The notes: a model not told the origin generated them from the letters alone. 64,000 nt of DNA from Hormiphora californensis (GCA_020137815.1 CM035361.1:6572001-6636000); one strand, 5' to 3'; shown: positions 3,001 through 64,000, counted from the stretch's first letter. Translations and numbers: made by a program.

Positions 3001-4700
3001 GTGTTTGTCAAGACAACATCCTTGTACTTTGGGTTATTTTCCTGAAAAAATTGCAACAACTTGAACACCTTAGTCGGATCAACTGTATCTTGAACAATTA
3101 CCGACCGGTGGTTGACGTTCCTCTTGATACGAACATTCATGATTCCCAGGTCTTCATTTGCACGCGGCAGAGTTAGGCACGTATCCTTGATATTAATTGG
3201 CACGTTAATTACATTGCCAGAGATACCTCGTTGCCCGCCTGCGGGCAACAGCCTTATTTTCATACATGGTATCCGTTGTGATACCATTCTAGCCTCTGTG
3301 GGATTTGGGTCTAATGTAGCTGGCAATGATCCAGGGTTCAGCAACATCTTTTCTTCATGGACAGGCGAAAACTTCCCCTTGGATTCATGAGTTTTACAGC
3401 GTTTGCAAATCCAGTCATCAGTATTCGGTAGTTTAACAACACCTTGTAAATAACACAGCTTACTGCAGTGTTTGCAAACATACTCTGGATAACAATTCAT
3501 AGCTTCCTGAAACTCCTCAACCACGTTGTTACACTTTTTTGTCCTCTTTACTTTTTTAACTGCTTGGGGCGGCGCAGTTCCTGTCTTACTAGTATTAGGA
3601 ATGCTCCCATACCCACTATCTCCAATCTGAGAAGTAAGTTGGAGATCCTTTGAGAGTGCTCCAGTGGTTCCATTACTTTGAATATCACAATCGGTAATGT
3701 CTTTACTAGTCACTGACATACAAACTCGCTTCAGCGGGGGATTTGTTTTATCACTGATTTGCGGACTCTTGACTGATTGGGAAGTTTCCACGTCCTGGCT
3801 ACACTCAGCCAACATACGCTTCTCCGCTTTCTTTTTTGCCCTGTATGTCCTCATATGCTTGTTTTTCATTTCCCTTAGCAGATCTCGGTCCATCGAGTCA
3901 TTGTACTTTTTTCTTCTTTCATCATTGATCTCTTTCACATGCCTCTTCTTACTTCCAACTCCATGTTTGGCCCTCGATTTCCTTTTTCGTTCACTTGGGT
4001 TTAACCCACTGCCACGTTTGTTTTGATATTCTGCTTCACTCTCACTGCCAGAGCAACTGGTACCAGATGACAATGATATCTCATCCAAATCAAAGTATGG
4101 AGTAAAGTCAACATATACAGCAGAGTCGTCAATAAAAAGATCATCCAATTTAGAAACATCATCACTGATTTCCTCGTCTGACGTTCCACTACCACCGGCT
4201 TCATCGTCGATAAACGGGTTATTTGCAGGACCAGGATTAGTCTCAACATCTCCGCTCAGTAATAGTAACATCATGATTACAGCATGTGTTGAATACAAAT
4301 ATCCAACGCAGATGAAAGTCGTCATAGGTTGTGTTAAATCCATTTGCGCAGCAGGTAACCCTTGAAATTGCGAAGAAGGGGCAAATGACAACCCAATGAT
4401 AAGGCCTAGCGAAATGAAACACAACAGTCGGGGAATAGTGTAAACATATCGGTACATTTGAGCTGTTCTTCTCCACACCATAACAGGTCCTGTCACACGA
4501 TGCAAAAATACAGGTACCGGCTCGTCGTAAACTATCCAAAGAATGACGAGGTGCTCTAAATTGAACATAACATTAATTCCTTGCACAATTTCCAGTAAAA
4601 ATGTCCACAAGTCAGGAACTACCCTGTTTCCTAGTAGAAATTCATCCGTTGCCACCCGTTCCCATCCGTAGCCATAAGATTCATGGTTCATTGAATTGTT
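1..4700 (-). mobile_element. Decayed Helitron/Helentron Rep-helicase (RepHel) coding region, continuing off the window start
   Basis: Minus-strand translation by eye gives the Rep motif AYFGRVEFGDRGSPHLHM (~2025-2090) and PIF1 helicase motifs FISGAGGVGKTFL (~570-612), VAVTATTGTAAALVEGITVH, YLIIDEVSMLG and FGGVNILFFGDFYQIPPV. The frame is broken by stops and frameshifts. The 5' boundary is approximate. Confidence 0.85.
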
Positions 4701-5160
4701 CGCCATATCATCACTCAATTCACTCAAATCAATAGGTATTGTGAAATTGAAAATAATTCCTACCAATAACATCAGTAGAATTGAATGACGCATTTCCTTT
4801 CAGTTAAATTCAGATATTTATTCCTGATCACTGATAGGTCGAACAAAAGGATTTGTGTTTTTCGAATTTTTGAAAAAAACGCAGTACAGAATTTTCAACT
4901 TCTCAATTTTCTCCAATGAAAACGCGCGGCCGATATAAAACAAATTTTGCCGCGCGTTACAGTTTATAACCGCGCGCTCCTCATAAAATGTCAATTGTTT
5001 GCACGCGCGCAATTTACTCCGCAAGTGTCAAATCGCGCGCGCCGCAGGGTTGCCCTTCGCAACGAAAGTGTGACCAAAAAATGTCCCTCTACCGATTAGT
5101 TAGTATACCAAAATGTCGTTTTCGAATTCTAACCCTGCTATGCCTTTTTACAAAGTAAAA

Positions 5161-7731: not shown

Positions 7732-10700
7732 ATAGCTTCATTTCGTATTTCAAGGAGCATTTCCTCCTCCTTGTCGGGGTCGGTCCTGACGTCAAACTCC
7801 TCCTCCTTGTCGGGGTCGGTCCTGACGTCAAGCTCCTCCTCCTTGTCGGGGTCGGTCCTGACGTCAAACTCCTCCTCCTTGTCGGGGTCGGTCCTGACGT
7901 CAAGCTCCTCCTCCTTGTCGGGGTCGGTCCTGACGTCAAGCTCCTCCTCCTTGTCGGGGTGGGTCCTGACGTCAAGCTCCTCCTACTTGCCGGGGTGGGT
8001 CCTGACGTCAAGCTCCTCCTACTTGCCGGGGTTGGTCCTGACGTCAAGCTCCTCCTCCTTGTAGGGGTCGGTCCTGACGTCAAGCTCCTCCTCCTTGTCG
8101 GGGTTGGTCCTGACGTCAAGCTCCTCCTCCTTGTCGGGGTCGGTCCTGACGTCAAGCTCCTCCTCCTTGTCGGGGTCGGTCCTGACGTCAAGCTCCTCCT
8201 CCTTGTCGGGGTCGGTCCTGACGTCAAGCTCCTCCTCCTTGTCGGGGTCGGTCCTGACGTCAAGCTCCTCCTCCTTGTCGGGGTGGGTCCTGACGTCAAG
8301 CTCCTCCTCCTTGTAGGGGTCGGTCCTGACGTCAAGCTCCTCCTCCTTGTCGGGGTCGGTCCTGACGTCAAGCTCCTCCTCCTTGTCGGGGTCGGTCCTG
8401 ACGTCAAGCTCCTCCTCCTTGTCGGGGTCGGTCCTGACGTCAAGCTCCTCCTCCTTGCCGGGGTCGGTCCTGACGTCAAGCTCCTCCTCCTTGTCGGGGT
8501 CGGTCCTGACGTCAAGCTCCTCCTCCTTGTCGGGGTCGGTCCTGACGTCAAGCTCCTCCTCCTTGTCGGGGTGGGTCCTGACGTCAAGCTCCTCCTCCTT
8601 GTCGGGGTCGGTCCTGACGTCAAGCTCCTCCTCCTTGTCGGGGTCGGTCCTGACGTCAAGCTCCTCCTCCTTGTCGGGGTCGGTCCTGACGTCAAGCTCC
8701 TCCTCCTTGTCGGGGTCGGTCCTGACGTCAAGCTCCTCCTCCTTGTCGGGGTCGGTCCTGACGTCAAGCTCCTCCTCCTTGTCGGGGTCGGTCCTGACGT
8801 CAAGCTCCTCCTCCTTGTCGGGGTCGGTCCTGACGTCAAGCTCCTCCTCCTTGTCGGGGTCGGTCCTGACGTCAAGCTCCTCCTCCTTGTCGGGGTCGGT
8901 CCTGACGTCAAGCTCCTCCTCCTTGTCGGGGTCGGTCCTGACGTCAAGCTCCTCCTCCTTGTCGGGGTCGGTCCTGACGTCAAGCTCCTCCTCCTTGTCG
9001 GGGTCGGTCCTGACGTCAAGCTCCTCCTCCTTGTCGGGGTCGGTCCTGACGTCAAGCTCCTCCTCCTTGTCGGGGTCGGTCCTGACGTCAAGCTCCTCCT
9101 CCTTGTCGGGGTCGGTCCTGACGTCAAGCTCCTCCTCCTTGTCGGGGTCGGTCCTGACGTCAAGCTCCTCCTCCTTGTCGGGGTCGGTCCTGACGTCAAG
9201 CTCCTCCTCCTTGTCGGGGTCGGTCCTGACGTCAAGCTCCTCCTCCTTGTCGGGGTCGGTCCTGACGTCAAGCTCCTCCTCCTTGTCGGGGTCGGTCCTG
9301 ACGTCAAGCTCCTCCTCCTTGTCGGGGTCGGTCCTGACGTCAAGCTCCTCCTCCTTGTCGGGGTCGGTCCTGACGTCAAGCTCCTCCTCCTTGTCGGGGT
9401 CGGTCCTGACGTCAAGCTCCTCCTCCTTGTCGGGGTCGGTCCTGACGTCAAGCTCCTCCTCCTTGTCGGGGTCGGTCCTGACGTCAAGCTCCTCCTCCTT
9501 GTCGGGGTCGGTCCTGACGTCAAGCTCCTCCTCCTTGTCGGGGTCGGTCCTGACGTCAAGCTCCTCCTCCTTGTCGGGGTCGGTCCTGACGTCAAGCTCC
9601 TCCTCCTTGTCGGGGTCGGTCCTGACGTCAAGCTCCTCCTCCTTGTCGGGGTCGGTCCTGACGTCAAGCTCCTCCTCCTTGTCGGGGTCGGTCCTGACGT
9701 CAAGCTCCTCCTCCTTGTCGGGTCGGTCCTGACGTCAAGCTCCTCCTCCTTGTCGGGGTCGGTCCTGACGTCAAGCTCCTCCTCCTTGTCGGGGTCGGTC
9801 CTGACGTCAAGCTCCTCCTCCTTGTCGGGGTCGGTCCTGACGTCAAGCTCCTCCTCCTTGTCGGGGTCGGTCCTGACGTCAAGCTCCTCCTCCTTGTCGG
9901 GGTCGGTCCTGACGTCAAGCTCCTCCTCCTTGTCGGGGTCGGTCCTGACGTCAAGCTCCTCCTCCTTGTCGGGGTCGGTCCTGACGTCAAGCTCCTCCTC
10001 CTTGTCGGGGTCGGTCCTGACGTCAAGCTCCTCCTCCTTGTCGGGGTCGGTCCTGACGTCAAGCTCCTCCTCCTTGTCGGGGTCGGTCCTGACGTCAAGC
10101 TCCTCCTCCTTGTCGGGGTCGGTCCTGACGTCAAGCTCCTCCTCCTTGTCGGGGTCGGTCCTGACGTCAAGCTCCTCCTCCTTGTCGGGGTCGGTCCTGA
10201 CGTCAAGCTCCTCCTCCTTGTCGGGGTCGGTCCTGACGTCAAGCTCCTCCTCCTTGTCGGGGTCGGTCCTGACGTCAAGCTCCTCCTCCTTGTCGGGGTC
10301 GGTCCTGACGTCAAGCTCCTCCTCCTTGTCGGGGTCGGTCCTGACGTCAAGCTCCTCCTCCTTGTCGGGGTCGGTCCTGACGTCAAGCTCCTCCTCCTTG
10401 TCGGGGTCGGTCCTGACGTCAAGCTCCTCCTCCTTGTCGGGGTCGGTCCTGACGTCAAGCTCCTCCTCCTTGTCGGGGTCGGTCCTGACGTCAAGCTCCT
10501 CCTCCTTGTCGGGGTCGGTCCTGACGTCAAGCTCCTCCTCCTTGTCGGGGTCGGTCCTGACGTCAAGCTCCTCCTCCTTGTCGGGGTCGGTCCTGACGTC
10601 AAGCTCCTCCTCCTTGTCGGGGTCGGTCCTGACGTCAAGCTCCTCCTCCTTGTCGGGGTCGGTCCTGACGTCAAGCTCCTCCTCCTTGTCGGGGTCGGTC

Positions 10701-13409
10701 CTGACGTCAAGCTCCTCCTCCTTGTCGGGGTCGGTCCTGACGTCAAGCTCCTCCTCCTTGTCGGGGTCGGTCCTGACGTCAAGCTCCTCCTCCTTGTCGG
10801 GGTCGGTCCTGACGTCAAGCTCCTCCTCCTTGTCGGGGTCGGTCCTGACGTCAAGCTCCTCCTCCTTGTCGGGGTCGGTCCTGACGTCAAGCTCCTCCTC
10901 CTTGTCGGGGTCGGTCCTGACGTCAAGCTCCTCCTCCTTGTCGGGGTCGGTCCTGACGTCAAGCTCCTCCTCCTTGTCGGGGTCGGTCCTGACGTCAAGC
11001 TCCTCCTCCTTGTCGGGGTCGGTCCTGACGTCAAGCTCCTCCTCCTTGTCGGGGTCGGTCCTGACGTCAAGCTCCTCCTCCTTGTCGGGGTCGGTCCTGA
11101 CGTCAAGCTCCTCCTCCTTGTCGGGGTCGGTCCTGACGTCAAGCTCCTCCTCCTTGTCGGGGTCGGTCCTGACGTCAAGCTCCTCCTCCTTGTCGGGGTC
11201 GGTCCTGACGTCAAGCTCCTCCTCCTTGTCGGGGTCGGTCCTGACGTCAAGCTCCTCCTCCTTGTCGGGGTCGGTCCTGACGTCAAGCTCCTTGTCGGGG
11301 TCGGTCCTGACGTCAAGCTCCTCCTCCTTGTCGGGGTCGGTCCTGACGTCAAGCTCCTCCTCCTTGTCGGGGTCGGTCCTGACGTCAAGCTCCTCCTCCT
11401 TGTCGGGGTCGGTCCTGACGTCAAGCTCCTCCTCCTTGTCGGGGTCGGTCCTGACGTCAAGCTCCTCCTCCTTGTCGGGGTCGGTCCTGACGTCAAGCTC
11501 CTCCTCCTTGTCGGGGTCGGTCCTGACGTCAAGCTCCTCCTCCTTGTCGGGGTCGGTCCTGACGTCAAGCTCCTCCTCCTTGTCGGGGTCGGTCCTGACG
11601 TCAAGCTCCTCCTCCTTGTCGGGGTCGGTCCTGACGTCAAGCTCCTCCTCCTTGTCGGGGTCGGTCCTGACGTCAAGCTCCTCCTCCTTGTCGGGGTCGG
11701 TCCTGACGTCAAGCTCCTCCTCCTTGTCGGGGTCGGTCCTGACGTCAAGCTCCTCCTCCTTGTCGGGGTCGGTCCTGACGTCAAGCTCCTCCTCCTTGTC
11801 GGGGTCGGTCCTGACGTCAAGCTCCTCCTCCTTGTCGGGGTCGGTCCTGACGTCAAGCTCCTCCTCCTTGTCGGGGTCGGTCCTGACGTCAAGCTCCTCC
11901 TCCTTGTCGGGGTCGGTCCTGACGTCAAGCTCCTCCTCCTTGTCGGGGTCGGTCCTGACGTCAAGCTCCTCCTCCTTGTCGGGGTCGGTCCTGACGTCAA
12001 GCTCCTCCTCCTTGTCGGGGTCGGTCCTGACGTCAAGCTCCTCCTCCTTGTCGGGGTCGGTCCTGACGTCAAGCTCCTCCTCCTTGTCGGGGTCGGTCCT
12101 GACGTCAAGCTCCTCCTCCTTGTCGGGGTCGGTCCTGACGTCAAGCTCCTCCTCCTTGTCGGGGTCGGTCCTGACGTCAAGCTCCTCCTCCTTGTCGGGG
12201 TCGGTCCTGACGTCAAGCTCCTCCTCCTTGTCGGGGTCGGTCCTGACGTCAAGCTCCTCCTCCTTGTCGGGGTCGGTCCTGACGTCAAGCTCCTCCTCCT
12301 TGTCGGGGTCGGTCCTGACGTCAAGCTCCTCCTCCTTGTCGGGGTCGGTCCTGACGTCAAGCTCCTCCTCCTTGTCGGGGTCGGTCCTGACGTCAAGCTC
12401 CTCCTCCTTGTCGGGGTCGGTCCTGACGTCAAGCTCCTCCTCCTTGTCGGGGTCGGTCCTGACGTCAAGCTCCTCCTCCTTGTCGGGGTCGGTCCTGACG
12501 TCAAGCTCCTCCTCCTTGTCGGGGTCGGTCCTGACGTCAAGCTCCTCCTCCTTGTCGGGGTCGGTCCTGACGTCAAGCTCCTCCTCCTTGTCGGGGTCGG
12601 TCCTGACGTCAAGCTCCTCCTCCTTGTCGGGGTCGGTCCTGACGTCAAGCTCCTCCTCCTTGTCGGGGTCGGTCCTGACGTCAAGCTCCTCCTCCTTGTC
12701 GGGGTCGGTCCTGACGTCAAGCTCCTCCTCCTTGTCGGGGTCGGTCCTGACGTCAAGCTCCTCCTCCTTGTCGGGGTCGGTCCTGACGTCAAGCTCCTCC
12801 TCCTTGTCGGGGTCGGTCCTGACGTCAAGCTCCTCCTCCTTGTCGGGGTCGGTCCTGACGTCAAGCTCCTCCTCCTTGTCGGGGTCGGTCCTGACGTCAA
12901 GCTCCTCCTCCTTGTCGGGGTCGGTCCTGACGTCAAGCTCCTCCTCCTTGTCGGGGTCGGTCCTGACGTCAAGCTCCTCCTCCTTGTCGGGGTCGGTCCT
13001 GACGTCAAGCTCCTCCTCCTTGTCGGGGTCGGTCCTGACGTCAAGCTCCTCCTCCTTGTCGGGGTCGGTCCTGACGTCAAGCTCCTCCTCCTTGTCGGGG
13101 TCGGTCCTGACGTCAAGCTCCTCCTCCTTGTCGGGGTCGGTCCTGACGTCAAGCTCCTCCTCCTTGTCGGGGTCGGTCCTGACGTCAAGCTCCTCCTTCC
13201 TTGTCGGGGTCGGTCCTGACGTCAAGCTCCTCCTCCTTGTCGGGGTCGGTCCTGACGTCAAGCTCCTCCTCCTTGTCGGGGTCGGTCCTGACGTCAAGCT
13301 CCTCCTCCTTGTCGGGGTCGGTCCTGACGTCAAGCTCCTCCTCCTTGTTGGGGTCGGTCCTGACGTCAAGCTCCTCCTCTTCTTCTTCTTCCTCAATATC
13401 ATCATCGTC
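7732..13409 (-). CDS. Putative giant acidic-repeat exon (DDDDIEEEE-(EEELDVRTDPDK)n-EEEMLLEIRNEAM)
   Basis: Minus-strand acceptor ctccatacag|GAC and donor ATG|gtaaaa flank the array, with both ends in the acidic frame. It follows the phase-0 exon at 13493-13632. The two single-base indels must be errors for the frame to be open. Confidence 0.45.
7760..13380. repeat. 36-bp tandem array, ~156 near-identical copies
   Basis: Unit is CTCCTCCTCCTTGTCGGGGTCGGTCCTGACGTCAAG. Single-base indels occur at ~9721 and ~13197 and a 6-bp deletion at ~11290. Variants cluster at the left edge. Confidence 0.98.
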
Positions 13410-16627: not shown

Positions 16628-26852
<10,225 letters not shown>

Positions 26853-29751: not shown

Positions 29752-31374
29752 ACAACTTTACAAGTTTACAAGTTTACAAGTTTACAATTAAAGTTTTATT
29801 TATAAAGAAACATGCCTTCCCTGAATGGGTCCACCTAAATAAAATTAAGTTGAAAAACTATCCCTTCACACTCACACTCATCAGCACAGCACAGCACATT
29901 GAGGCGAAAGGTCATTTGGAAGTGGCGGGTACCCTCTGACTGGAGGACGATCGTGAAATCCTGTCAAGTAATTGCCCAATGATGATTTGAACTGAGTCAA
30001 GCTCACACAAGAATTGACAGCAGCTGGTAGAGTGTTCCATAAATGAGCTGCTCTTGGACCAAATGAGCAGTGAAATTGATTAGCTCGTTTCGTTTCTGCT
30101 CTATAGGGGTAAGGTGGTGGGACTATCCGCATACCCAGTCTAGCGTGCTGTTGAAATACTAGGTTGGCAGAGTTAGGTACAAAACCATGAATCGTCTTCC
30201 ACACATGAATCAGAATGTAGCGCTGTCTCCGACGCTCAAGGGACATAAGATTGAGCAATTTCAGTCTATCCCAATAGTCATGACCCTGCATACCATCAAG
30301 ACGTCTGGTGAAACAACGTTGGACATTCTCAATAGCCTTGATATCACCAGCCTTGGAAGGGTTCCAGACTAGGCAACAGTACTCAAGAATAGGCCTGACC
30401 AAGGACTTGAAAAGCTGTACCATAACCTCCGGAGAACGGTCCCGAAAAACGCTGAATATCCAGCCACTCAAGAGGGAAGCCTTCCGCACTATGATAGAAA
30501 TGTGCCTCGTCCATGACCCATCTGAAGACATCTGGACACAAACATCAGGTTCGGGGGTCAACTGCACACCTGAGCTTGTAGTATATGAAAACACTTCAGC
30601 TGCGAAAGGAAACTGTCTGAGGATAGTAGACTTATTCAGACTATAGCTCAAGAGCTGAAATTTATCCTCATGTAACTTCATATTGTTCTTTTTTGCCCAT
30701 TCTGCCACTCTTAAAAGATCGTTCTGTAGGCACGCCTGGCCAGCCATATCCGAAATAGCTTTTACCAACTTAGTATCGTCAGCAAAAGTTAGACACATGC
30801 TACCGTCTAGCACTGACTCCAGGTCAAGAATATATATGAGGAAAAGAAGTGGTCCGAGCACACTACCCTGGGCAACCCCTCTAAGTACCTCAACCCAGGG
30901 TGACCTCACTCCATCCACCATTACACACTGATTCCTGCCCAGGATCCAAGCACTGATCCACTGCAGGAGTTGACCTCCAATACCATATCGCCTCAATTTA
31001 GCTAGCAGAACATTGATATCCACGGAATCAAATGCTTTACTAAAATCTAAGTAGATAGCATCGACTTCCTGATCACCGCATAGATCAGATAGGATGATGT
31101 CAACATGGGTTAGTAGCTGTGTCATGGTACTGCGCCCCTTCCTAAACCCATGCTGAGTGTCACTCTGCAACTCCATCTCGTCCAAGTAGTCACTGATCCG
31201 TTTCCTCACCAGCCGCTCAAACACTTTAGACAGGTGACTTGTTATAGACACTGGGCGATAGTTCACAGGTTTCGATTTAGCCCCCTTCTTGAATAACGGT
31301 GTTATGAACTGTTGCTTTAAGCAACTAGGGACCGATCCGTCTTCAAATGACCTGTTCCACAACATCCAAATCAT
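29752..31374 (-). mobile_element. 5'-truncated CR1-type LINE (reverse transcriptase ORF 29881-31374)
   Basis: NYRPVSITS, QHGFRKGRST, YLDFSKAFDSV, GVAQGSVLGPLLF and FADD motifs, with a (TTGTAAAC)n 3' tail. Confidence 0.92.
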
Positions 31375-31386
31375 GTTTTATTGGTG

Positions 31387-33213
31387 AGTCTCCTGCTCAG
31401 AAGTGTTCAGTGACCCTTCAGCTATCGATCCAGAAGTTGCAGCGGGACGAGTCGAAGATCTGGGTGACATCCTGTGCCATCTGGAATTTACGCCCAACTC
31501 GATTCTTGATGCCCTTAAGGAGATTAAACCATTCTCGGCCTCTCCGCCCGACTGTATACCAGCGTATGTCCTGAAACAATGTTGTACCAGTCTGTCATAT
31601 CCTATCTGGTTACTGTGGAATCAGTCATACATGAAGGGGGCTGTATCACCCGTTCTCAAAAATCAGTATATAACACCCATATTCAAAAAGGGTCCTAAAT
31701 CGTTGAAGGAAAACTACCGCCCTGTTTCCATCACGTCTCATCTTACCAAGGTGTTTGAGAGACTCATCAGGAGGAGTGTAGCTGATCATATCGATAAACT
31801 GGAGTTACACAGCGAAAACCAACATGGGTTCCGTAAAGGCCGAAGTACCATGTCTCAACTCTTGACTCACGTTGACTACATATTGAGTGAACTCTGCTCG
31901 GATCGGGAAGTTGATGTGGTTTATTTGGACTTTAGTAAGGCCTTCGACCGTGTGGATATTGAGCTCCTCCTTGCCAAACTCAAACGATATGGGATAGGAG
32001 GTAAGGTTTACGACTGGATACGTGCCTGGATTAAAGGACGGCACCAGTGTGTGGTTGTGGATGGGGCTACATCGGCATGGATCGAAGTTTTAAGTGGAGT
32101 GGCCCAGGGCAGTGTTCTTGGACCCCTTCTCTTTCTCATTTACATACTGGACCTGGAATCAGTTCTAGATAAAACTATGGCACTCACCTTTGCTGATGAT
32201 ACCAAACTCATTCGGGCCATTAAAGAGCTGAGTGATAAGAACGAGCTTCAGTTGGACCTGCTCAAGGTATCAGAGTGGGCAACCTCTAACAACATGGTTC
32301 TGCACGAATCGAAGTTCCAACTCCTCAGCTACAGGCTCAATAAGTCTGCTCTCCTTGAGAATTTGCCATTCATGTCTGAGGTATACTCTTATACGACAGC
32401 CTCAGGATGCGATTTACTACCGGAGGAACATGTGCGTGACCTGGGCGTACTAATATCAGAAGATGGCTCATGGTCGAGACACATATCTACCATAGTACGA
32501 AAGGCGTCTCTTCTCTCCGGTTGGATCTTCAGTGTGTTTAGAGATCGAACCCCGGAGGTTATGTTGCAGTTGTACAAATCATTGGTACGGCCTATCCTGG
32601 AATACTGCTGCCTGGTCTGGTGCCCATCGAAAGTGGGGGATATCAAGGCAATTGAAAATGTCCAGCGGTGCTTCACCAGAAGACTTAATTGAAGGAATGA
32701 AAGAGTTGGATTACTGGGCCAGACTCAGAGAGCTCCGGATGATGTCACTTCAAAGGAGGAGACAGCGATACCTACTCATTCATACCTGGAAGACTCACCA
32801 TGAGCTGGTTCCAAACTCAGCTGATATTATCTTCCAAACGACTCTGAGGCTAGGGGTACGGGCTATACCACCACCTTATCCTTATAGAGCTGAAACTAAA
32901 CGGGCAAATCAGCTCCATAACTCATTCGGCTGTCGGGCGGCCCATTTGTGGAACTGTCTACCGAAATCTGTAAACTCTTGTCAATCATTGGGTGAATTCA
33001 AAGCGGAGCTGGGGAAGTTCCTAAACACCTTCAATGACTGTCCCCCCACTAGGGGATACCCGGTACTCCCTAACAATCTCTCTCCGGCATGTCTAATATC
33101 TGTGTAGGCCGGTATGGAGTAGCGTTTAAATAATTTATGGGGGACCCACTATGGGAAGCCCTTTTTATTGTATAAAACTATCTATTTGTAAACCTTGTAA
33201 ACCTTGTAAACCT
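31387..33213 (+). mobile_element. 5'-truncated CR1-type LINE (RT ORF 31403-32692, frameshifted into 32532-33107)
   Basis: Same RT motifs, one frameshift near 32688, and a (CTTGTAAAC)n tail at ~33186-33213. Confidence 0.92.
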
Positions 33214-34626: not shown

Positions 34627-38601
<3,975 letters not shown>

Positions 38602-38679
38602 GTTTGTTCTAACTCATAACTTGGTGGTGGGGGAGGCCGAGGGGGGTGTTTGCAAAACTAAAGTTTGCTATAACATTTT

Positions 38680-44801: not shown

Positions 44802-51306
<6,505 letters not shown>

Positions 51307-51756: not shown

Positions 51757-53039
51757 GAAGTAACAAATTTTTAACATTTTTCCATATATTTACCGTTACC
51801 CCCAGAGCGGCTTGACGTGTGTGTAATATCCCTGTGTCGATAGATAGGTTAGCTTCCAGTATTTTATACAAAACTACTCCTTTTGCCTATTTTTATCACG
51901 TCTATTATAGACACCATATAAAGAGTTAGCTACTTAAAAGTTACTGTATTAGCTATAATAATAGTTCCCCATTGCCCCATTATTTATTACTAATTGATAC
52001 GTAATGATATGATAAACGTGAAAATAACAAAAAAATAGCAAAATGTAAAAGACGTTATAAAGAGATAGCAATTTACACGTTATGAACGCTTGTGTTGATA
52101 CAAGGATGATTGTTTTTGTATCAGTTTGTTGGGTCAGTGAAAGTGAGAGAAAAAAGCGACGGATTCCTTTTTAAACATATATATGTAACCAGACTTTGTT
52201 ATCTCGTTGAGAGAGAGAAGAGAGATACATTCATGTATAAAATTTGTGTCAGGAGCCTTATTTTCCAAGTTGATGGTGGTGGCTCCATTATCACTGGTGG
52301 GTAGTGGGTACCAGTAGATGGTGATCCCCACAATGGGTGGGCTCCATGATGGTAGTGGGCAACTCCATTATCACTACCATGCTGGTGGTATACCAGTGTT
52401 TCTGTTTCATGTAGTGTTAGTTTTATTACCCAGAAACGCTCCCTTCCTAGTGTAATTATGTGTTACATTATAACCTCTCCATATTAACTCAGAAATCAAT
52501 CCTCTAGATCAGTAGTGTGTCCTTCCTTATCGTTTGTAAATGGCCCATCTGATTCCCTTAAAAATAACTTTGGTTTTACTTTTCTGCAGACCCGTTGTGG
52601 TGGCGTCAGTCAAATTGAGAATACACTGCATTTAGGTGGCGCGCAGTTACTGGTGCCGCGCGCTCAAACTCAGCAATAAAATTATGTCATCATTTTTGAG
52701 TTTCAGATTTGAAGTTTTTTTTCTCGAGTGCCGACACAAATTTAATTTCATGGGCAATTCCTGTGCCTTACTCGTGGGGGTTCTATCCCCTACACCTCCA
52801 CCGGAGCTGGGCCGATAAGCTTCCGCTGACCCCCTCATTTTGGGTTTCATACCCCCTGACCGGGGCTGCTGCCCTAGCCCCGGATTGCCTTGTTCGACCC
52901 TCCCTCCCCGCGTCCCGGTTTGAACAAAACAAGCCCCGGACGCACCAGCCGAGCTCCGTACCTTAAAAATTCAACAGAAGTATTTATATTTATTAAAGTT
53001 GTATTTTCACTCTAGCAATGTGACCATATTTCTACAAAG

Positions 53040-54150
53040 ATGTGGTTTCCTTGGAGCGATTCAATCAAAACCCGACTATGTCGCTTCCTTCTTCAGGTAA
53101 ACAAAGACATTACTTCTAGGAAATCTTCACTTTTATGACCCCTCAACGCATTCTAGCAATAAATCGTTACCCCCCCCCCCTCAATATGTATCACCTCTAG
53201 TAATTTGTCCCCCTCAGCACTACATAGGGCACTTTCTCTCAATATGTATCACCTCTTTGTCCTTCTCCCCTCAGCACTACATAGGGCACTTTCTCGATGA
53301 AAAGCTGTCGCTGGAGCAGATGAGTATTGAGCTGTATGCTGGTAAAGGGACAATCCACAATGTAGGTCTCAACACAGAGGCACTCAATGAGGTGCTGGAT
53401 AAAGTTAATTTGCCTTATGAAATTACACAAGGATTTATCGGGTATGTGTTCTTTTTTGTGGTCATCACACAGCGTCATGCACTTGCACCTTGCCCGACCC
53501 TCTTCCCGTGTTCTCCGTAAAGGAGGTTTAGAACATACCAAGGATTCGGCTGATCAAGTATTCTTGTCAGCAAATATATATTTTTTTCAGTTCTTACACA
53601 ATTCAGATCAAATACAACCACTATTATTTCAGTCGTGTGTCAATTGATGTTCCCTGGAGTGCTCTAATCTCGGACAGCACTGCAGTTGAGGTCGATGGTT
53701 TGGAGATAACGGTTCAACCCAAGAGTTATTGTACACAGGATAATACTAGTATGATGGATAGTGTTCGAAACATGACATCCAGGTAACCAGCTTGAAACTA
53801 CCCTTCCTTTTTTCAAAAAACAACCTTCCTTTTTTCCCCTTCTTGCGAAAACTCTCACTATTTCATTCCTCAGTTTGGTTCCTTAACTTGCTATAACACA
53901 CAATTCTCCCTATTGTCAGTTTGGTTTTGGCTCAACAGGTTATGGAAGAGGAATTGGATACAAAGTTAGAGGGGCTGGAGGCATTTGCTCAGATGATCGA
54001 GAGTGTTTTATCACGTGTAAAATGCAGCTTTAAGAACACTTCAATTAGATTGCAGTCACGTGATCCTGTCATTGGGGTGTCACTGGAACTTGTTATTGAT
54101 AGGTGAGTAGGAATTGGTAGATTTCACTAATTATATTTCACTCCATCTCA

Positions 54151-54181
<31 letters not shown>

Positions 54182-57100
54182 CCACTAACCTCACAATGTA
54201 TACCCCCGCAGTGTAAACTATTTCGATGAAAGAGAGAAGACAGAGGGAGAGGATGGAATCCAGAAGTAACACCAGGGTAAAGTAACTGAGAGACTAAGTA
54301 GGGTTTAGATAGAGATGGTCGGTAGGTTGTGGGGTGGTGGTCGGTAAGAACAATCTCCCCTTCATTGGGTAGGAGGTCCCCTTTTTCTTCTCTCATTCCT
54401 GTTCTTTCTCGAAATGTTTAAAAAGGGGAAGAAAAAAGAAAAAAAACCGTACTCCAAAAACCCCTCCCCTTCCGACCGATTCCCCCGATTCCCTTTTAAA
54501 AAAAAAAAAAAAAAAAAACCCCCCTTTTTCCCCTTTTCTTTCCCCAATCCCGTTTGCCAAAAAAAGGGGGTTTTGAAAACCCTTTTTTCAGGGGAAAAGT
54601 TTTCGTATAAACAACTGGCCCCCCCCCCCCCCCCATTTTCCCAAAACCGGGGGGCCCCCAGTTGCGTGATTATAACAACTCCCCCCCCCGATAATTTAAC
54701 GGGGGGTCATAAGGGATAAATATGTCTGGGTTTAGGGTTCGAGTGAACCCAGGACACCCAATTTAAAGCCCGGGTCAACAACCCCTTTTGTTTTTAGAGG
54801 TATTGGGCCCAAAAATCTCCTCTCGCTCTCTCTCTCTTCTCTCTCCTTTATCTCTCTCTTTTCTTCTCTATCTCTCCCCCCACCCCCTCTCCCTTTTCTC
54901 CCCCCTTTTCTCTCTCTTTTCTTTTTCTCTCTCCTCTCGCTCCCCCTCTCTCTCTCTCTCTCTCTCCTAAAATTTTCACTCTTCCCCCCCTTTTCTCTCT
55001 CGCCCCTCTCTCTCTCTCTTCTCTCCTCTCTCTCTCTCCCCCCCTTCTCTCCTCCTTTCAGAAAAGGGGCTCCCCGGGGGAGGAAGAGGGAAACAGAAAA
55101 ACCTTTCCAATAAACCCAGACCCTCCTAAAAAATTTTGGGGGGAAAAGGGGGGTCAAGATTCACCCGAAAATCAATGTCAGTGCCCGGACCCAAAGGGAA
55201 AATTTCCCCAGCCCCTACTGGGTATTACTATCTTCAAATTTTTATCCTTCCGGGCTCCCCTCCCCCCCCCCATTTTAGTTTGGAATGTAGGTTTGGCCCC
55301 CCCCCCCTCCCCTTAATTACCCCCCCTTCTCCCTTTTTTCTAGCTTGATATGGAGTGTAAGGGTTGGGGATATTAAAGCCGCCCCCCCCCCCATTTCAAA
55401 ATCCCCTCTCCCTCCCCACCTAAAAACCCTCTCTCCCCCGCTGGATAGGAGTGTAAAGGTTGGGGGAGTTTTTCACGCCAAAGCTCCCCCACCCCCCCCC
55501 CCCCCAATACTAACTCCACTCCCCCACCTAACTAACTCAACTACCCCCCCCCCCCCCTAACTAACCCCCCACCCTAACTAACTCCCTCTCTCCCCTAGCT
55601 GGATATGGAATGTAATGTGGGCAGTATTCATGCCATGCTCTCGCCACATGATGTCCATGTTATTGGAAATCTTCTGGAAAGCGTCACCTCAACTCTTGCT
55701 GGTCAGTTCTTTTAGTGTGGGGCTGTGTTTGTGAGATCTGCTTGCTGGTCAGTGCTTTTAGTGTGGGTCTGTGTTTTATGTGTGGAAAGTGGGTTAGACA
55801 TGGTTTGACACACATAATTTGACATATTTTGTTTGTGTGAAACTGCGTGTGTGAGATGCCGGTCAGTCCTTAGACCCGAAAGAAAAGCTTGTAACAGCTG
55901 TTGTAACAGTGATTGTACAGGAAAGACGCACCCTCACTATTCACATTATATGACGTCAGCTAACGTTGGGCACTGGACAGTAGACTGCAGCGTTTATAGT
56001 CTAACATCAATATATCCCCGGTCTACTAGATAGTAGAAAAGAGACGGCTCCCTCGCAGGCTCGTGCACTAATGTACAAGAATTCTATAAGTAACTACCTC
56101 TAACACCATACCCCCACTAGATAGTAGAAAAGAGACAGCTCCCCTCCCCATCAAACAACGTCCCCCCACTATACTACTTGGGGTTTCACTCTCCTCCATA
56201 CCCCCCCCCCCCCACTAGATAGTAGAAAAGAGACGGCTCCCTTCCGCTGTAAGAGGATGAGTTCTGAAGATTACGCAACCGTTGAACGAGATCTGCATCT
56301 CCATTATACGAACAATAGTGAGAGCAACCATCGCAATAAACACCCTGTAAGTAGTAACCATCGCAATAAACACCCTGTAAGTAGTAACCATCGCAATAAA
56401 CACCCTGTAAGTAGTAACCATCGCAATAAACACCCTGTAAGTAGTAACCATCGCCAATAAACACCCTGTAAGTAGTAACCATCGCAATAAACACCCTGTA
56501 AGTAGTAACCATCGCAATAAACACCCTGTAAGTAGTAACCATCGCAATAAACACCCTGTAAGTAGTAACCATCGCAATAAACACCCTGTAAGTAGTAACC
56601 ATCGCAATAAACACCCTGTAAGTAATAACCATCGCAATAAACACCCTGTAAGTAGTAACCATCGCAATAAACACCCTGTAAGTAGTAACCATCGCAATAA
56701 ACACCCTGTAAGTAGTAACCATCGCAATAAACACCCTGTAAGTAGTAACCATCGCAATAAACACCCTGTAAGTAGTAACCATCGCAATAAACACCCTGTA
56801 AGTAGTAACCATCGCAATAAACACCCTGTAAGTAGTAACCATCGCAATAAACACCCTGTAAGTAGTAACCATCGCAATAAACACCCTGTAAGTAGTAACC
56901 ATCGCAATAAACACCCTGTAAGTAGTAACCATCGCAATAAACACCCTGTAAGTAGTAACCATCGCAATAAACACCCTGTAAGTAGTAACCATCGCAATAA
57001 ACACCCTGTAAGTAGTAACCATCGCAATAAACACCCTGTAAGTAGTAACCATCGCAATAAACACCCTGTAAGTAGTAACCATCGCAATAAACACCCTGTA

Positions 57101-58915
57101 AGTAGTAACCATCGCAATAAACACCCTGTAAGTAGTAACCATCGCAATAAACACCCTGTAAGTAGTAACCATCGCAATAAACACCCTGTAAGTAGTAACC
57201 ATCGCAATAAACACCCTGTAAGTAGTAACCATCGCAATAAACACCCTGTAAGTAGTAACCATCGCAATAAACACCCTGTAAGTAGTAACCATCGCAATAA
57301 ACACCCTGTAAGTAGTAACCATCGCAATAAACACCCTGTAAGTAGTAACCATCGCAATAAACACCCTGTAAGTAGTAACCATCGCAATAAACACCCTGTA
57401 AGTAGTAACCATCGCAATAAACACCCTGTAAGTAGTAACCATCGCAATAAACACCCTGTAAGTAGTAACCATCGCAATAAACACCCTGTAAGTAGTAACC
57501 ATCGCAATAAACACCCTGTAAGTAGCAACCATCGCAATAAACACCCTGTAAGTAGTAACCATCGCAATAAACACCCTGTAAGTAGTAACCATCGCAATAA
57601 ACACCCTGTAAGTAGTAACCATCGCAATAAACACCCTGTAAGTAGTAACCATCGCAATAAACACCCTGTAAGTAGTAACCATCGCAATAAACACCCTGTA
57701 AGTAGTAACCATCGCAATAAACACCCTGTAAGTAGTAACCATCGCAATAAACACCCTGTAAGTAGTAACCATCGCAATAAACACCCTGTAAGTAGTAACC
57801 ATCGCAATAAACACCCTGTAAGTAGTAACCATCGCAATAAACACCCTGTAAGTAGTAACCATCGCAATAAACACCCTGTAAGTAGTAACCATCGCAATAA
57901 ACACCCTGTAAGTAGGAACCATCGCAATAAACACCCTGTAAGTAGTAACCATCGCAATAAACACCCTGTAAGTAGTAACCATCGCAATAAACACCCTGTA
58001 AGTAGTAACCATCGCAATAAACACCCTGTAAGTAGTAACCATCGCAATAAACACCCTGTAAGTAGTAACCATCGCAATAAACACCCTGTAAGTAGTAACC
58101 ATCGCAATAAACACCCTGTAAGTAGTAACCATCGCAATAAACACCCTGTAAGTATATAGTGTGTATATATTGTAGGAATGGTAATGAGTGTTTATTATTA
58201 GAAATGGCATAAAGTAGAGGTGAACTATACCCCCCTGTTTCACAGGTTGAACAAAGTGACTTCTTCTATAGTATGCACAGTGGTCTTCCACCCCTGGCGC
58301 CTCTTGATGACACTGAATTACAGGTACCCCAATAAACTATTCACTTTAATGTTTCATGTTAATGTGTCTGTTCATTCTCATGCCCAGCACATTTATTTGT
58401 TTATTTGTTTATTTGTTTATTTGTTTATTTGTTTATTTGTTCATTTGTTTATTTGTTCATTTGTCTCTATATTGTAACCACCCTCCTCTCTCAGAGTATA
58501 CCGCTTGGCAGTGTGGGTGGTGACTCCCTACCATTTCATCCTAACAGAACAACATCCCGAGGGGGCGGCCCAAATGACCCTAGACAAACCCAGACTGAAC
58601 TGCAGAAAGATGAAATTATTGTAAGTCGCCCCCCCCCCCCCCCCCCCCCCCACGACGCTATTGGCCCCGCTCCCGCCGCTATTGGCCTATTTGATGAGTT
58701 AAATTTTCCGGATTTCCATCCGTGTGAGATACTTTGAACAACAGCCTGTTATTTTATGATGAGAGTTATAAATATTATATTGTATGATCTTTCAGTTCCA
58801 ATTGAATGTCCGATACCTGGCAGTTACCCTCCTCCACCAAAATCTTACCAATGCAAGTGTTACTGGAAACTTAACTCAACCCATGGTGACTCTCTCCAAC
58901 AAATATTTTGACAAG
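53040..58915 (+). CDS. ATG2: Autophagy-related protein 2, N-terminal part. Exons 53040-53096, 53275-53441, 53633-53782, 53920-54102, 54212-~54277, [unresolved], 55599-55701, 56219-56346, 58246-58323, 58495-58620, 58796-58915; the gene should continue beyond
   Basis: MWFPWSDSIKTRLCRFLLQ/HYIGHFLDEKLSLEQMSIELYAGKGTI (chorein-N), IDVPWSALISDSTAVEVDGLEITVQP, LEGLEAFAQMIESVLSRVKCSF, GSIHAMLSPHDVH and MSSEDYATVERDL. Confidence 0.9.
56327..58153 (+). repeat. 30-bp tandem array (~61 copies) of an ATG2 donor junction
   Basis: Unit is AACCATCGCAATAAACACCCT|GTAAGTAGT. The first copy is the real exon end at 56346. Confidence 0.95.
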
Positions 58916-59219: not shown

Positions 59220-59256
59220 TTAGATAGGGCGGGTTTTTCTACCTCTTATTCTGATC
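59220..59256 (-). CDS. Putative terminal exon of an unidentified minus-strand gene (xIRIRGRKTRPI*)
   Basis: Acceptor gtttcttacag|G ATC AGA ATA AGA GGT AGA AAA ACC CGC CCT ATC TAA, with a minus-strand AATAAA at 59127-59132. It is too short to identify. Confidence 0.35.
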
Positions 59257-62200
59257 CTGTAAGAAACATGACAGAGGTTTTTCTACCTCTTATTCTGATC
59301 CTGTAAGGAACATGACAGAGGTTTTTCTACCTCTTATTCTGATCCTGTAAGGAACATGACAGAGGTTTTTCTACCTCTTATTCTGATCATGTAAAGAACA
59401 TGACAGAGGTTTTTCTACCTCTTATTCTGATCCTGTAAAGAACATGACAGAGGTTTTTCTACCTCTTATTCTGATCATGTAAAGAACATGACAGAGGTTT
59501 TTCTACCTCTTATTCTGATCCTGTAAAGAACATGACAGAGGTTTTTCTACCTCTTATTCTGATCCTGTAAGGAACATGACAGAGGTTTTTCTACCTCTTA
59601 TTCTGATCATGTAAAGAACATGACAGAGGTTTTTCTACCTCTTATTCTGATCCTGTAAAGAACATGACAGAGGTTTTTCTACCTCTTATTCTGATCCTGT
59701 AAGGAACATGACAGAGGTTTTTCTACCTCTTATTCTGATCCTGTAAGGAACATGACAGAGGTTTTTCTACCTCTTATTCTGATCATGTAAAGAACATGAC
59801 AGAGGTTTTTCTACCTCTTATTCTGATCATGTAAAGAACATGACAGAGGTTTTTCTACCTCTTATTCTGATCCTGTAAGGAACATGACAGAGGTTTTTCT
59901 ACCTCTTATTCTGATCATGTAAGGAACATGACAGAGGTTTTTCTACCTCTTATTCTGATCCTGTAAGGAACATGACAGAGGTTTTTCTACCTCGTATTCT
60001 GATCCTGTAAGGAACATGACAGAGGTTTTTCTACCTCTTATTCTGATCCTGTAAGGAACATGACAGAGGTTTTTCTACCTCTTATTCTGATCCTGTAAGG
60101 AACATGACAGAGGTTTTTCTACCTCTTATTCTGATCCTGTAAGGAACATGACAGAGGTTTTTCTACCTCTTATTCTGATCCTGTAAGGAACATGACAGAG
60201 GTTTTTCTACCTCTTATTCTGATCCTGTAAGGAACATGACAGAGGTTTTTCTACCTCTTATTCTGATCCTGTAAGGAACATGACAGAGGTTTTTCTACCT
60301 CTTATTCTGATCATGTAAAGAACATGACAGAGGTTTTTCTACCTCTTATTCTGATCATGTAAGGAACATGACAGAGGTTTTTCTACCTCGTATTCTGATC
60401 CTGTAAGGAACATGACAGAGGTTTTTCTACCTCTTATTCTGATCCTGTAAGGAACATGACAGAGGTTTTTCTACCTCTTATTCTGATCCTGTAAGGAACA
60501 TGACAGAGGTTTTTCTACCTCTTATTCTGATCCTGTAAGGAACATGACAGAGGTTTTTCTACCTCTTATTCTGATCCTGTAAGGAACATGACAGAGGTTT
60601 TTCTACCTCTTATTCTGATCCTGTAAGGAACATGATAGAGGTTTTTCTACCTCTTATTCTGATCCTGTAAAGAACATGACAGAGGTTTTTCTACCTCTTA
60701 TTCTGATCCTGTAAGGAACATGACAGAGGTTTTTCTACCTCTTATTCTGATCCTGTAAGGAACATGACAGAGGTTTTTCTACCTCTTATTCTGATCCTGT
60801 AAGGAACATGACAGAGGTTTTTCTACCTCTTATTCTGATCCTGTAAGAAACATGACAGAGGTTTTTCTACCTCTTATTCTGATCCTGTAAGGAACATGAC
60901 AGAGGTTTTTCTACCTCTTATTCTGATCCTGTAAGGAACATGACAGAGGTTTTTCTACCTCTTATTCTGATCCTGTAAAGAACATGACAGAGGTTTTTCT
61001 ACCTCTTATTCTGATCCTGTAAAGAACATGACAGAGGTTTTTCTACCTCTTATTCTGATCCTGTAAGGAACATGACAGAGGTTTTTCTACCTCTTATTCT
61101 GATCCTGTAAGGAACATGACAGAGGTTTTTCTACCTCTTATTCTGATCCTGTAAGGAACGTGACAGAGGTTTTTCTACCTCTTATTCTGATCCTGTAAGG
61201 AACATGACAGAGGTTTTTCTACCTCTTATTCTGATCCTGTAAGGAACATGACAGAGGTTTTTCTACCTCTTATTCTGATCCTGTAAGGAACATGACAGAG
61301 GTTTTTCTACCTCTTATTCTGATCATGTAAAGAACATGACAGAGGTTTTTCTACCTCTTATTCTGATCCTGTAAGAAACATGACAGAGGTTTTTCTACCT
61401 CTTATTCTGATCCTGTAAGGAACATGACAGAGGTTTTTCTACCTCTTATTCTGATCCTGTAAAGAACATGACAGAGGTTTTTCTACCTCTTATTCTGATC
61501 ATGTAAAGAACATGACAGAGGTTTTTCTACCTCTTATTCTGATCCTGTAAAGAACATGACAGAGGTTTTTCTACCTCTTATTCTGATCCTGTAAGGAACA
61601 TGACAGAGGTTTTTCTACCTCTTATTCTGATCATGTAAAGAACATGACAGAGGTTTTTCTACCTCTTATTCTGATCATGTAAAGAACATGACAGAGGTTT
61701 TTCTACCTCTCATTCTGATCCTGTAAAGAACATGACAGAGGTTTTTCTACCTCTTATTCTGATCCTGTAAGGAACATGACAGAGGTTTTTCTACCTCTTA
61801 TTCTGATCCTGTAAGGAACATGACAGAGGTTTTTCTACCTCTTATTCTGATCATGTAAAGAACATGACAGAGGTTTTTCTACCTCTTATTCTGATCCTGT
61901 AAGGAACATGACAGAGGTTTTTCTACCTCTTATTCTGATCCTGTAAGGAACATGACAGAGGTTTTTCTACCTCTTATTCTGATCCTGTAAGGAACATGAC
62001 AGAGGTTTTTCTACCTCTTATTCTGATCCTGTAAGGAACATGACAGAGGTTTTTCTACCTCTTATTCTGATCCTGTAAGGAACATGACAGAGGTTTTTCT
62101 ACCTCTTATTCTGATCCTGTAAGGAACATGACAGAGGTTTTTCTACCTCTTATTCTGATCCTGTAAGGAACATGACAGAGGTTTTTCTACCTCTTATTCT

Positions 62201-64000
62201 GATCCTGTAAGGAACATGACAGAGGTTTTTCTACCTCTTATTCTGATCCTGTAAGGAACATGACAGAGGTTTTTCTACCTCTTATTCTGATCATGTAAAG
62301 AACATGACAGAGGTTTTTCTACCTCTTATTCTGATCCTGTAAGGAACATGACAGAGGTTTTTCTACCTCTTATTCTGATCATGTAAAGAACATGACAGAG
62401 GTTTTTCTACCTCTTATTCTGATCCTGTAAGGAACATGACAGAGGTTTTTCTACCTCTTATTCTGATCCTGTAAGGAACATGACAGAGGTTTTTCTACCT
62501 CTTATTCTGATCCTGTAAGGAACATGACAGAGGTTTTTCTACCTCTTATTCTGATCCTGTAAAGAACATGACAGAGGTTTTTCTACCTCTTATTCTGATC
62601 CTGTAAAGAACATGACAGAGGTTTTTCTACCTCTTATTCTGATCCTGTAAGGAACATGACAGAGGTTTTTCTACCTCTTATTCTGATCCTGTAAGGAACA
62701 TGACAGAGGTTTTTCTACCTCTTATTCTGATCATGTAAAGAACATGACAGAGGTTTTTCTACCTCTTATTCTGATCATGTAAAGAACATGACAGAGGTTT
62801 TTCTACCTCTTATTCTGATCCTGTAAGGAACATGACAGAGGTTTTTCTACCTCTTATTCTGATCCTGTAAAGAACATGACAGAGGTTTTTCTACCTCTTA
62901 TTCTGATCCTGTAAAGAACATGACAGAGGTTTTTCTACCTCTTATTCTGATCCTGTAAAGAACATGACAGAGGTTTTTCTACCTCTTATTCTGATCCTGT
63001 AAAGAACATGACAGAGGTTTTTCTACCTCTTATTCTGATCCTGTAAGGAACATGACAGAGGTTTTTCTACCTCTTATTCTGATCATGTAAAGAACATGAC
63101 AGAGGTTTTTCTACCTCTTATTCTGATCCTGTAAGGAACATGACAGAGGTTTTTCTACCTCTTATTCTGATCCTGTAAGGTTCACATGACAGAGGTTTTT
63201 CTACCTCTTATTCTGATCCTGTAAGGAACATGACAGAGGTTTTTCTACCTCTTATTCTGATCCTGTAAGGAACATGACAGAGGTTTTTCTACCTCTTATT
63301 CTGATCATGTAAAGAACATGACAGAGGTTTTTCTACCTCTTATTCTGATCCTGTAAAGAACATGACAGAGGTTTTTCTACCTCTTATTCTGATCCTGTAA
63401 AGAACATGACAGAGGTTTTTCTACCTCTTATTCTGATCCTGTAAGGAACATGACAGAGGTTTTTCTACCTCTTATTCTGATCCTGTAAGGAACATGACAG
63501 AGGTTTTTCTACCTCTTATTCTGATCCTGTAAAGAACATGACAGAGGTTTTTCTACCTCTTATTCTGATCCTGTAAGGAACATGACAGAGGTTTTTCTAC
63601 CTCTTATTCTGATCCTGTAAGGAACATGACAGAGGTTTTTCTACCTCTTATTCTGATCCTGTAAAGAACATGACAGAGGTTTTTCTACCTCTTATTCTGA
63701 TCCTGTAAGGAACATGACAGAGGTTTTTCTACCTCTTATTCTGATCATGTAAAGAACATGACAGAGGTTTTTCTACCTCTTATTCTGATCCTGTAAGGAA
63801 CATGACAGAGGTTTTTCTACCTCGTATTCTGATCCTGTAAGGAACGTGACAGAGGTTTTTCTACCTCGTATTCTGATCCTGTAAGGAACATGACAGAGGT
63901 TTTTCTACCTCTTATTCTGATCCTGTAAGGAACATGACAGAGGTTTTTCTACCTCTTATTCTGATCCTGTAAAGAACATGACAGAGGTTTTTCTACCTCT
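59232..64000. repeat. 44-bp tandem array (at least 108 copies), running off the window end
   Basis: Unit is GAACATGACAGAGGTTTTTCTACCTCTTATTCTGATCCTGTAAG, with recurring CCT/CAT and AAGG/AAAG variants. Confidence 0.97.

Follow-up and report, generated by a model that had tools for sequence, protein, structure and literature searches.

A tandem array of splice donors across an ATG2 exon-intron border in the ctenophore Hormiphora californensis

In the ctenophore Hormiphora californensis, a 30-bp tandem array of 61 units (56326..58154, plus strand) starts across the border between an ATG2 exon and the intron that follows it. Positions refer to the whole stretch of DNA that was analysed (the window, 64,000 nucleotides; GCA_020137815.1 CM035361.1:6572001-6636000). 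The repeat runs head to tail at minisatellite size and its first unit crosses a genuine border, which are the two structural features of 'mirages' or F7-type VNTRs, and the array belongs to this known kind of exon-intron border minisatellite. We think it probable that it arose by one local duplication, grew by unequal exchange or slippage and is removed almost whole through the exon-nearest donor. A 30-nt duplication across the donor of a 98-nt ancestral intron would have produced a second donor, and repeated unequal exchange or slippage would have expanded it recently. If the exon-nearest donor is taken, the array would be spliced out almost whole and its copies would depart with the intron, so that selection would hardly see them and the array would drift without a job. 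Splicing may leak slightly to donors 2-3 at most, with a gain of 10 or 20 residues; this is plausible because no structure is predicted for the repeat RNA and the linker that would receive these residues is variable. As most likely read, the array matters little, as one more border minisatellite; the density of duplicated borders in the window is more notable than the ATG2 array itself.

The ATG2 gene and the anatomy of the array

The 5' part of the gene (53040..58915, plus strand) was identified through Pfam ATG2_CAD, human ATG2A (E 2.8e-9) and ctenophore ATG2, and the gene continues beyond the window. Three exons matched ATG2_CAD at ascending profile positions (E 6.7e-6, 0.057 and 0.063), each of them below the whole-protein cut-off. 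Nine exon blocks were collinear with proteins P0002 and P0003, and both features of ATG2 membership, a chorein-type N-terminus and collinear similarity to ATG2 proteins, were found. Exons between about 54280 and 55590 were lost to garbled sequence. The coding exon 5' of the array (56219..56346, plus strand) was placed by tblastn and by alignment with Mnemiopsis and Bolinopsis ATG2 and forms an open chain with its neighbours, while the next exon (58246..58323, plus strand), with a phase 0 acceptor (CAG/GTT), was placed by alignment to ctenophore ATG2. Together they form one open frame that aligns to ctenophore ATG2, and the assignment of these exons to ATG2 in a preliminary description of this DNA is upheld on both sides of the array.

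The array is located in a linker that is variable and has a conserved block on either side. With the first donor the linker is 19 aa long, compared with 15 aa in both ctenophore relatives, and each further donor would add 10; neither relative has a repeat there. Protein searches with the exon (56221-56346) or with the repeat returned no matching protein, a weak negative because the ATG2 of this species was wholly absent from the results.

Tandem Repeats Finder (TRF) described the array (56326-58154) as having period 30, 60.9 copies and 99% matches. Each unit consists of the final 21 nt of exon 56219-56346 followed by GTAAGTAGT. When the array was split into units we found 61 donors, with the first GT at 56347 and the last at 58148, and GTAAGT was kept in all 61 copies. 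Of these units 56 are identical, as in a young, homogenised array. Three (copies 10, 40 and 53) differ by one base, located in the last codon; copy 5 is the only 31-nt unit, with an extra C at about 56455; and the final copy departs from the unit past GTAAGTA. The intron (56347-58245) is 1,899 nt long, of which the array takes up 1,808 nt (95%). The 21-nt exon piece matched the window 60 times, a count that misses copy 5 with its insertion; every match was inside the array (chance mean 0.00), and the same piece had 0 exact matches among metagenome contigs. These results reproduce much of the preliminary description, namely a stop-free phase 0 unit of 21 exon and 9 intron nt, a GTAAGT donor in every copy and an array filling about 95% of the intron. 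Its count of about 61 copies also stands for the assembled sequence, though only 56 are identical where all had been called perfect, and the first unit begins at 56326, one base before the start it had given (56327).

The first, exon-nearest donor (CCT/GTAAGT, 56347..56352, plus strand) is the putative working splice site, and gives the linker length nearest to that of the relatives. The last donor and the unique intron tail behind it (58148..58245, plus strand; 98 nt) probably represent the intron as it was before expansion. The exon half CCT fits the consensus poorly and the donor matches at 7/9 positions, as do 14 of the 24 donors that were scored. A 180-nt piece of the repeat RNA gave -1.9 kcal/mol (z +4.7) and is predicted to be unstructured, so that all donors of the array would be accessible; concealment of the spare donors by RNA folding was rejected on this ground. 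A donor-like GTGAGA just 5' of the first unit was rejected by inspection, as it lies in phase 1 and clashes with the phase-0 acceptor. Long minus-strand ORFs across the array follow from a unit that has no stops in any of the three minus frames, and no meaning was assigned to them.

The extra C in copy 5 (56446..56476, plus strand) throws donors 5-61 out of frame. It creates a TAA within copy 5, upstream of these donors, which lie at +1 (5 of the 57 were displayed, all with that stop). As assembled, open products are therefore obtained from donors 1-4 only, and donors 2-4 have predicted gains of 10, 20 or 30 residues. Copies 6-61 and the next exon together give 583 codons with no stop, and should the extra C prove an error, the array reads open from end to end and in phase with the exons on either side. 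It may well be an assembly error, because a one-base insertion at 55993 of the window was missing from matching contigs and because, in a 36-bp array of coding appearance elsewhere in the window (described below), 152 regular units are accompanied by a single +1 and a single -1 unit. The preliminary description had read the unit (VSSNHRNKHP) as in frame throughout apart from this base, with downstream donors adding 10-aa modules stepwise. The unit itself is indeed in frame and donors 2-4 do give open products; as assembled, the claim holds for donors 1-4 alone and donors 5-61 stand behind a stop. We consider an open unit unremarkable and its in-frame state probably due to chance. No special cause is needed, since one third of all lengths are divisible by three, the exonic portion is necessarily open and GTA AGT in phase 0 reads as two sense codons.

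Duplicated splice borders elsewhere in the window

We searched for other borders of this type by taking 14 exon bases together with the GT or AG at the border and looking for their recurrence in the adjoining intron. Copies in the border's own adjoining intron were found for 8 of the 47 exon borders of ATG2 and of the gene upstream of it, which encodes poly(A) polymerase. Controls were blank, both for borders compared with other introns (0/1081) and for exon-internal 16-mers (0/1027). Besides the ATG2 array, the duplicated borders were the poly(A) polymerase donors 36319, 47980 (4 copies) and 50814 and acceptor 49901, and the ATG2 acceptors 53275, 55599 and 56219 (2 copies). The short copies in the two genes lie at 36279-36391, 47951-48270, 50767-50870, 53180-53295, 55340-55362, 55697-55776 and 56030-56218. 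The last of these intervals (plus strand) holds two partial copies of the acceptor and first bases of exon 56219-56346, located 98 and 189 nt upstream of it, and both would lead to a stop if used.

A second long array served as an internal control, with the poly(A) polymerase gene presumed functional. This 41-bp array (48750..49913, plus strand) lies before a poly(A) polymerase exon, each unit comprising 28 intron nt and 13 exon nt, and offers 29 acceptors, of which only the last, exon-nearest one yields an open product. When exon-nearest sites are used throughout, 16 poly(A) polymerase exons form an open chain of 522 codons, and the Pfam positions are continuous across the array-filled intron. 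At 6 of the 7 other duplicated borders every outer copy tested led to a stop, the exception being acceptor 53275, which is open. If the genes work, the spliceosome must therefore take the exon-nearest site at those six borders. From this we infer that the exon-nearest donor is likely to be used in ATG2 as well, and that the in-frame state of its array is probably chance. Some border duplications of the neighbours are out of frame or contain stops, and these have persisted no less well than the ATG2 array.

Four poly(A) polymerase exons are doubled across a 100-N gap (37111-38614 and 44835-47992). The two sets are 90-95% alike and encode the same protein, and we believe that both haplotypes were probably assembled side by side. 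One copy has four extra donors and the other has none, as is expected of polymorphic, tolerated repeats. The copy without extra donors has a 5-kb G-rich 54-bp array past its last exon. A dispersed element of about 90 nt was also observed (23246, 38226 and 47601), which starts exactly at a poly(A) polymerase donor. In two samples it seems to be placed between an ATG2 acceptor copy and the true acceptor (loose ends at 56208 and 56246), and it may be linked to the origin of the border copies.

Whether duplications favour borders was approached in two ways. After hand merging, 9 of 13 events were border events, a count for which intron sizes were estimated by hand and three rows were relabelled as border events. 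P ranged from 4e-6 to 0.055, depending on the assumed unit length and on the omission of three long or garbled introns. In a symmetric 20-mer test, 6/48 borders (12.5%) scored, compared with 11% of the positions of an intron on average, 26/717 exon positions and 17/697 intergenic positions. It detected no border enrichment over intron interiors, where many of the matches are the border copies themselves. Taken together, the counts are only suggestive of enrichment at borders. If 8 in 47 holds genome-wide, this ctenophore would be a good system for studying the origin of mirages and a possible seeding of new introns.

Choice among the donors

Several published arrays provide precedents, all quoted here from excerpts of the papers. 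In the excerpts of Borensztajn et al. (2006; PMC1557585), human F7 intron 7 has a 37-bp VNTR in which the most upstream of the identical donors alone is used, the downstream ones being functional. The first F7 unit lies across the exon-intron border, with the true donor followed by identical donors, and the ATG2 array is arranged likewise. The F7 units number 5-9 and include 4 exon nt each, whereas ATG2 has 61 units with 21 exon nt and a length that is a multiple of three; use of the first donor is shown for F7 and putative for ATG2. LMNB2 and PDGF also use the first donor only, while in 6-16 intron 2 (25 donors) and CBS intron 13 (15-20 donors), both with fewer units than ATG2, two further donors are used besides the true one (PMC1557585). 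The amphioxus 'mirages' (Adh3 and the globins BflGb6 and BflGb9), as described in parts of Ebner et al. (2010; PMC3087553), occur at donor and acceptor borders alike, are unstable in length and leave splicing undisturbed. BflGb6 has 3-6 units, compared with 61 nearly identical, in-phase and open units in ATG2, and the host there is a cephalochordate rather than a ctenophore. Among the human and amphioxus cases compared, as far as these excerpts describe them, the ATG2 array is the larger and more uniform. In an early-branching animal whose introns are short, its 61 identical donors form a natural test of exon-nearest against acceptor-nearest choice.

For ctenophores, the passages of PMC8527503 on one genome give 13% tandem repeats and show nothing on border repeats, and our searches of open-licence papers listed no case of a ctenophore border minisatellite. 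Mnemiopsis is listed in part of PMC6142364 among the non-bilaterians with higher rates of exon skipping, which is generally tied to exon definition.

Several points speak against use of the first donor. All 61 donors would be accessible in a repeat RNA predicted to lack structure; introns here are short (17 of 23 measure 110-317 nt), and pairing across such introns could favour the last donor; the other giant array of the window (36 bp x 156) appears to be coding; and the human precedents are mammalian. We regard as unlikely a reading in which copying is aimed at borders, at about one border in six, and the ATG2 array, the only large one here with a unit open in frame, is read past its first donor, either as a 10-residue ladder or as a repeat insert of up to 600 residues, its length differing between alleles.

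In the ladder itself, many donors would be used and ATG2 isoforms would carry 0, 1, 2 or more 10-residue modules in the linker. The donors are identical and predicted to be accessible, the unit is open and in phase with open products from donors 2-4, and the position between conserved blocks is one where length varies. The nearest precedent for a short ladder is the use of two extra donors in human 6-16 and CBS (excerpts of PMC1557585), which stop at the second or third site, and use of the extra ATG2 donors is only putative. As assembled, 57 of the 61 donors are behind a stop, destructive outer copies are tolerated at 6 of the 7 other borders, and the linkers of both relatives are free of repeats. 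We consider the ladder improbable.

Use of the last donor, by pairing across a short 98-nt intron, would make the array exonic and add about 600 residues of the 10-residue repeat. The intron left behind would be close in size to the other short introns (minimum 110), copies 6-61 read open into the next exon, and the extra C that stands in the way is possibly an error on the grounds given above. However, the same rule applied elsewhere would break the frame of poly(A) polymerase at four borders, and that of ATG2 at acceptor 56219. Near-perfect identity at all codon positions is the mark of a young repeat and not of a conserved protein module. A repeat retained in the mature product would have its frame broken once as assembled, and the product would end in copy 5 if the extra C is real. 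We judge this explanation quite improbable, and splicing at the exon-nearest donor remains the preferred reading.

It is highly unlikely that the array is a U1 sink or splicing modulator, in which 60 spare donors on the nascent RNA would capture U1 and so adjust the splicing, termination or level of ATG2. The sites on one transcript are few relative to the nuclear U1 pool, and with a poorly matching exon half (CCT) each fits at 7/9 positions, against which stand sixty sites, predicted to be unstructured, whose intron half (GTAAGT) agrees fully with the consensus and, in part of PMC10078293, an association of human tandem-repeat length with splicing.

DNA contigs and other features of the window

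In order to examine the reality of the array, contigs of four sequencing runs were compared with the window at 55590-56400, with a 10% share threshold that is blind to a variant present in 1 of 61 units. Seven runs had been listed for 52900-54300, none of them recorded as RNA, and the one run presumed to be RNA gave 0 contigs at the locus, which speaks neither for nor against any splicing pattern. Run X2 gave a 60-base contig lying entirely within the repeat, with a depth of 121.8 compared with 16-27 in its neighbours (about 5-8x). The summed depth of the unit was 44,644 in X4 and 307,304 in X5, a different sample and study, as against a few hundred on the exon; these sums are not a copy number, and they place the unit far above single-copy depth in the contigs of two samples. 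The array is thus supported by DNA contigs. They do not bear out its length of 61 units, and X2 alone suggests far fewer.

That the assembler inflated a short duplication is very doubtful. Parts of the window are indeed garbled, it has a gap and it probably includes both haplotypes next to each other, none of the listed contigs spans the array, and the X2 repeat contig is only about 5-8x deeper than its neighbours. Against inflation, that contig is wholly repeat, the depth of the unit in X4 and X5 is far above that of the exon, and single variant units are scattered through the array.

One X5 contig leaves the unit at another junction and enters the same tail of the intron, which fits either the array end or a one-copy allele. 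A loose end at 56355 in X5, continuing into the intron sequence beyond the array, was considered as an array-free allele and dropped, since the exit of a long array looks alike in 31-mer contigs. A joint in X4 (56052-56208) was likewise dropped as a loss of acceptor copies, the loose ends suggesting a rearranged haplotype. Between the two acceptor copies, a 31-nt piece (56052-56082) has very high depth in the DNA runs and is a fragment of a common repeat.

Further repeats and coding-looking sequences were noted in the window. A 36-bp array of 156 units (7762-13379, minus strand) follows an acceptor and can be read, one +1 and one -1 unit excepted, as about 1,870 residues of a repeating acidic 12-residue motif; it is probably a giant coding repeat in some gene. 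A 44-bp array of at least 108 units (59232-64000) lies past the last ATG2 exon seen, has stops in all six frames and runs off the window; it may or may not cross a splice border as well. Two long ORFs on opposite strands (29881-32692; 497 and 429 aa) resemble by eye pieces of what we take to be a LINE-type reverse transcriptase. A long coding-looking stretch without introns (1-4800, minus strand) is, again by eye, presumably a rolling-circle transposon helicase gene. Two 329-aa ORFs (24727-25716 and 45965-46954, minus strand), the second of them within a poly(A) polymerase intron and in one copy only, are probably mobile-element genes. Finally, 17960-19040 and 20270-21280 (minus strand) appear by eye to be two small multi-exon genes, similar to each other and arranged in tandem.
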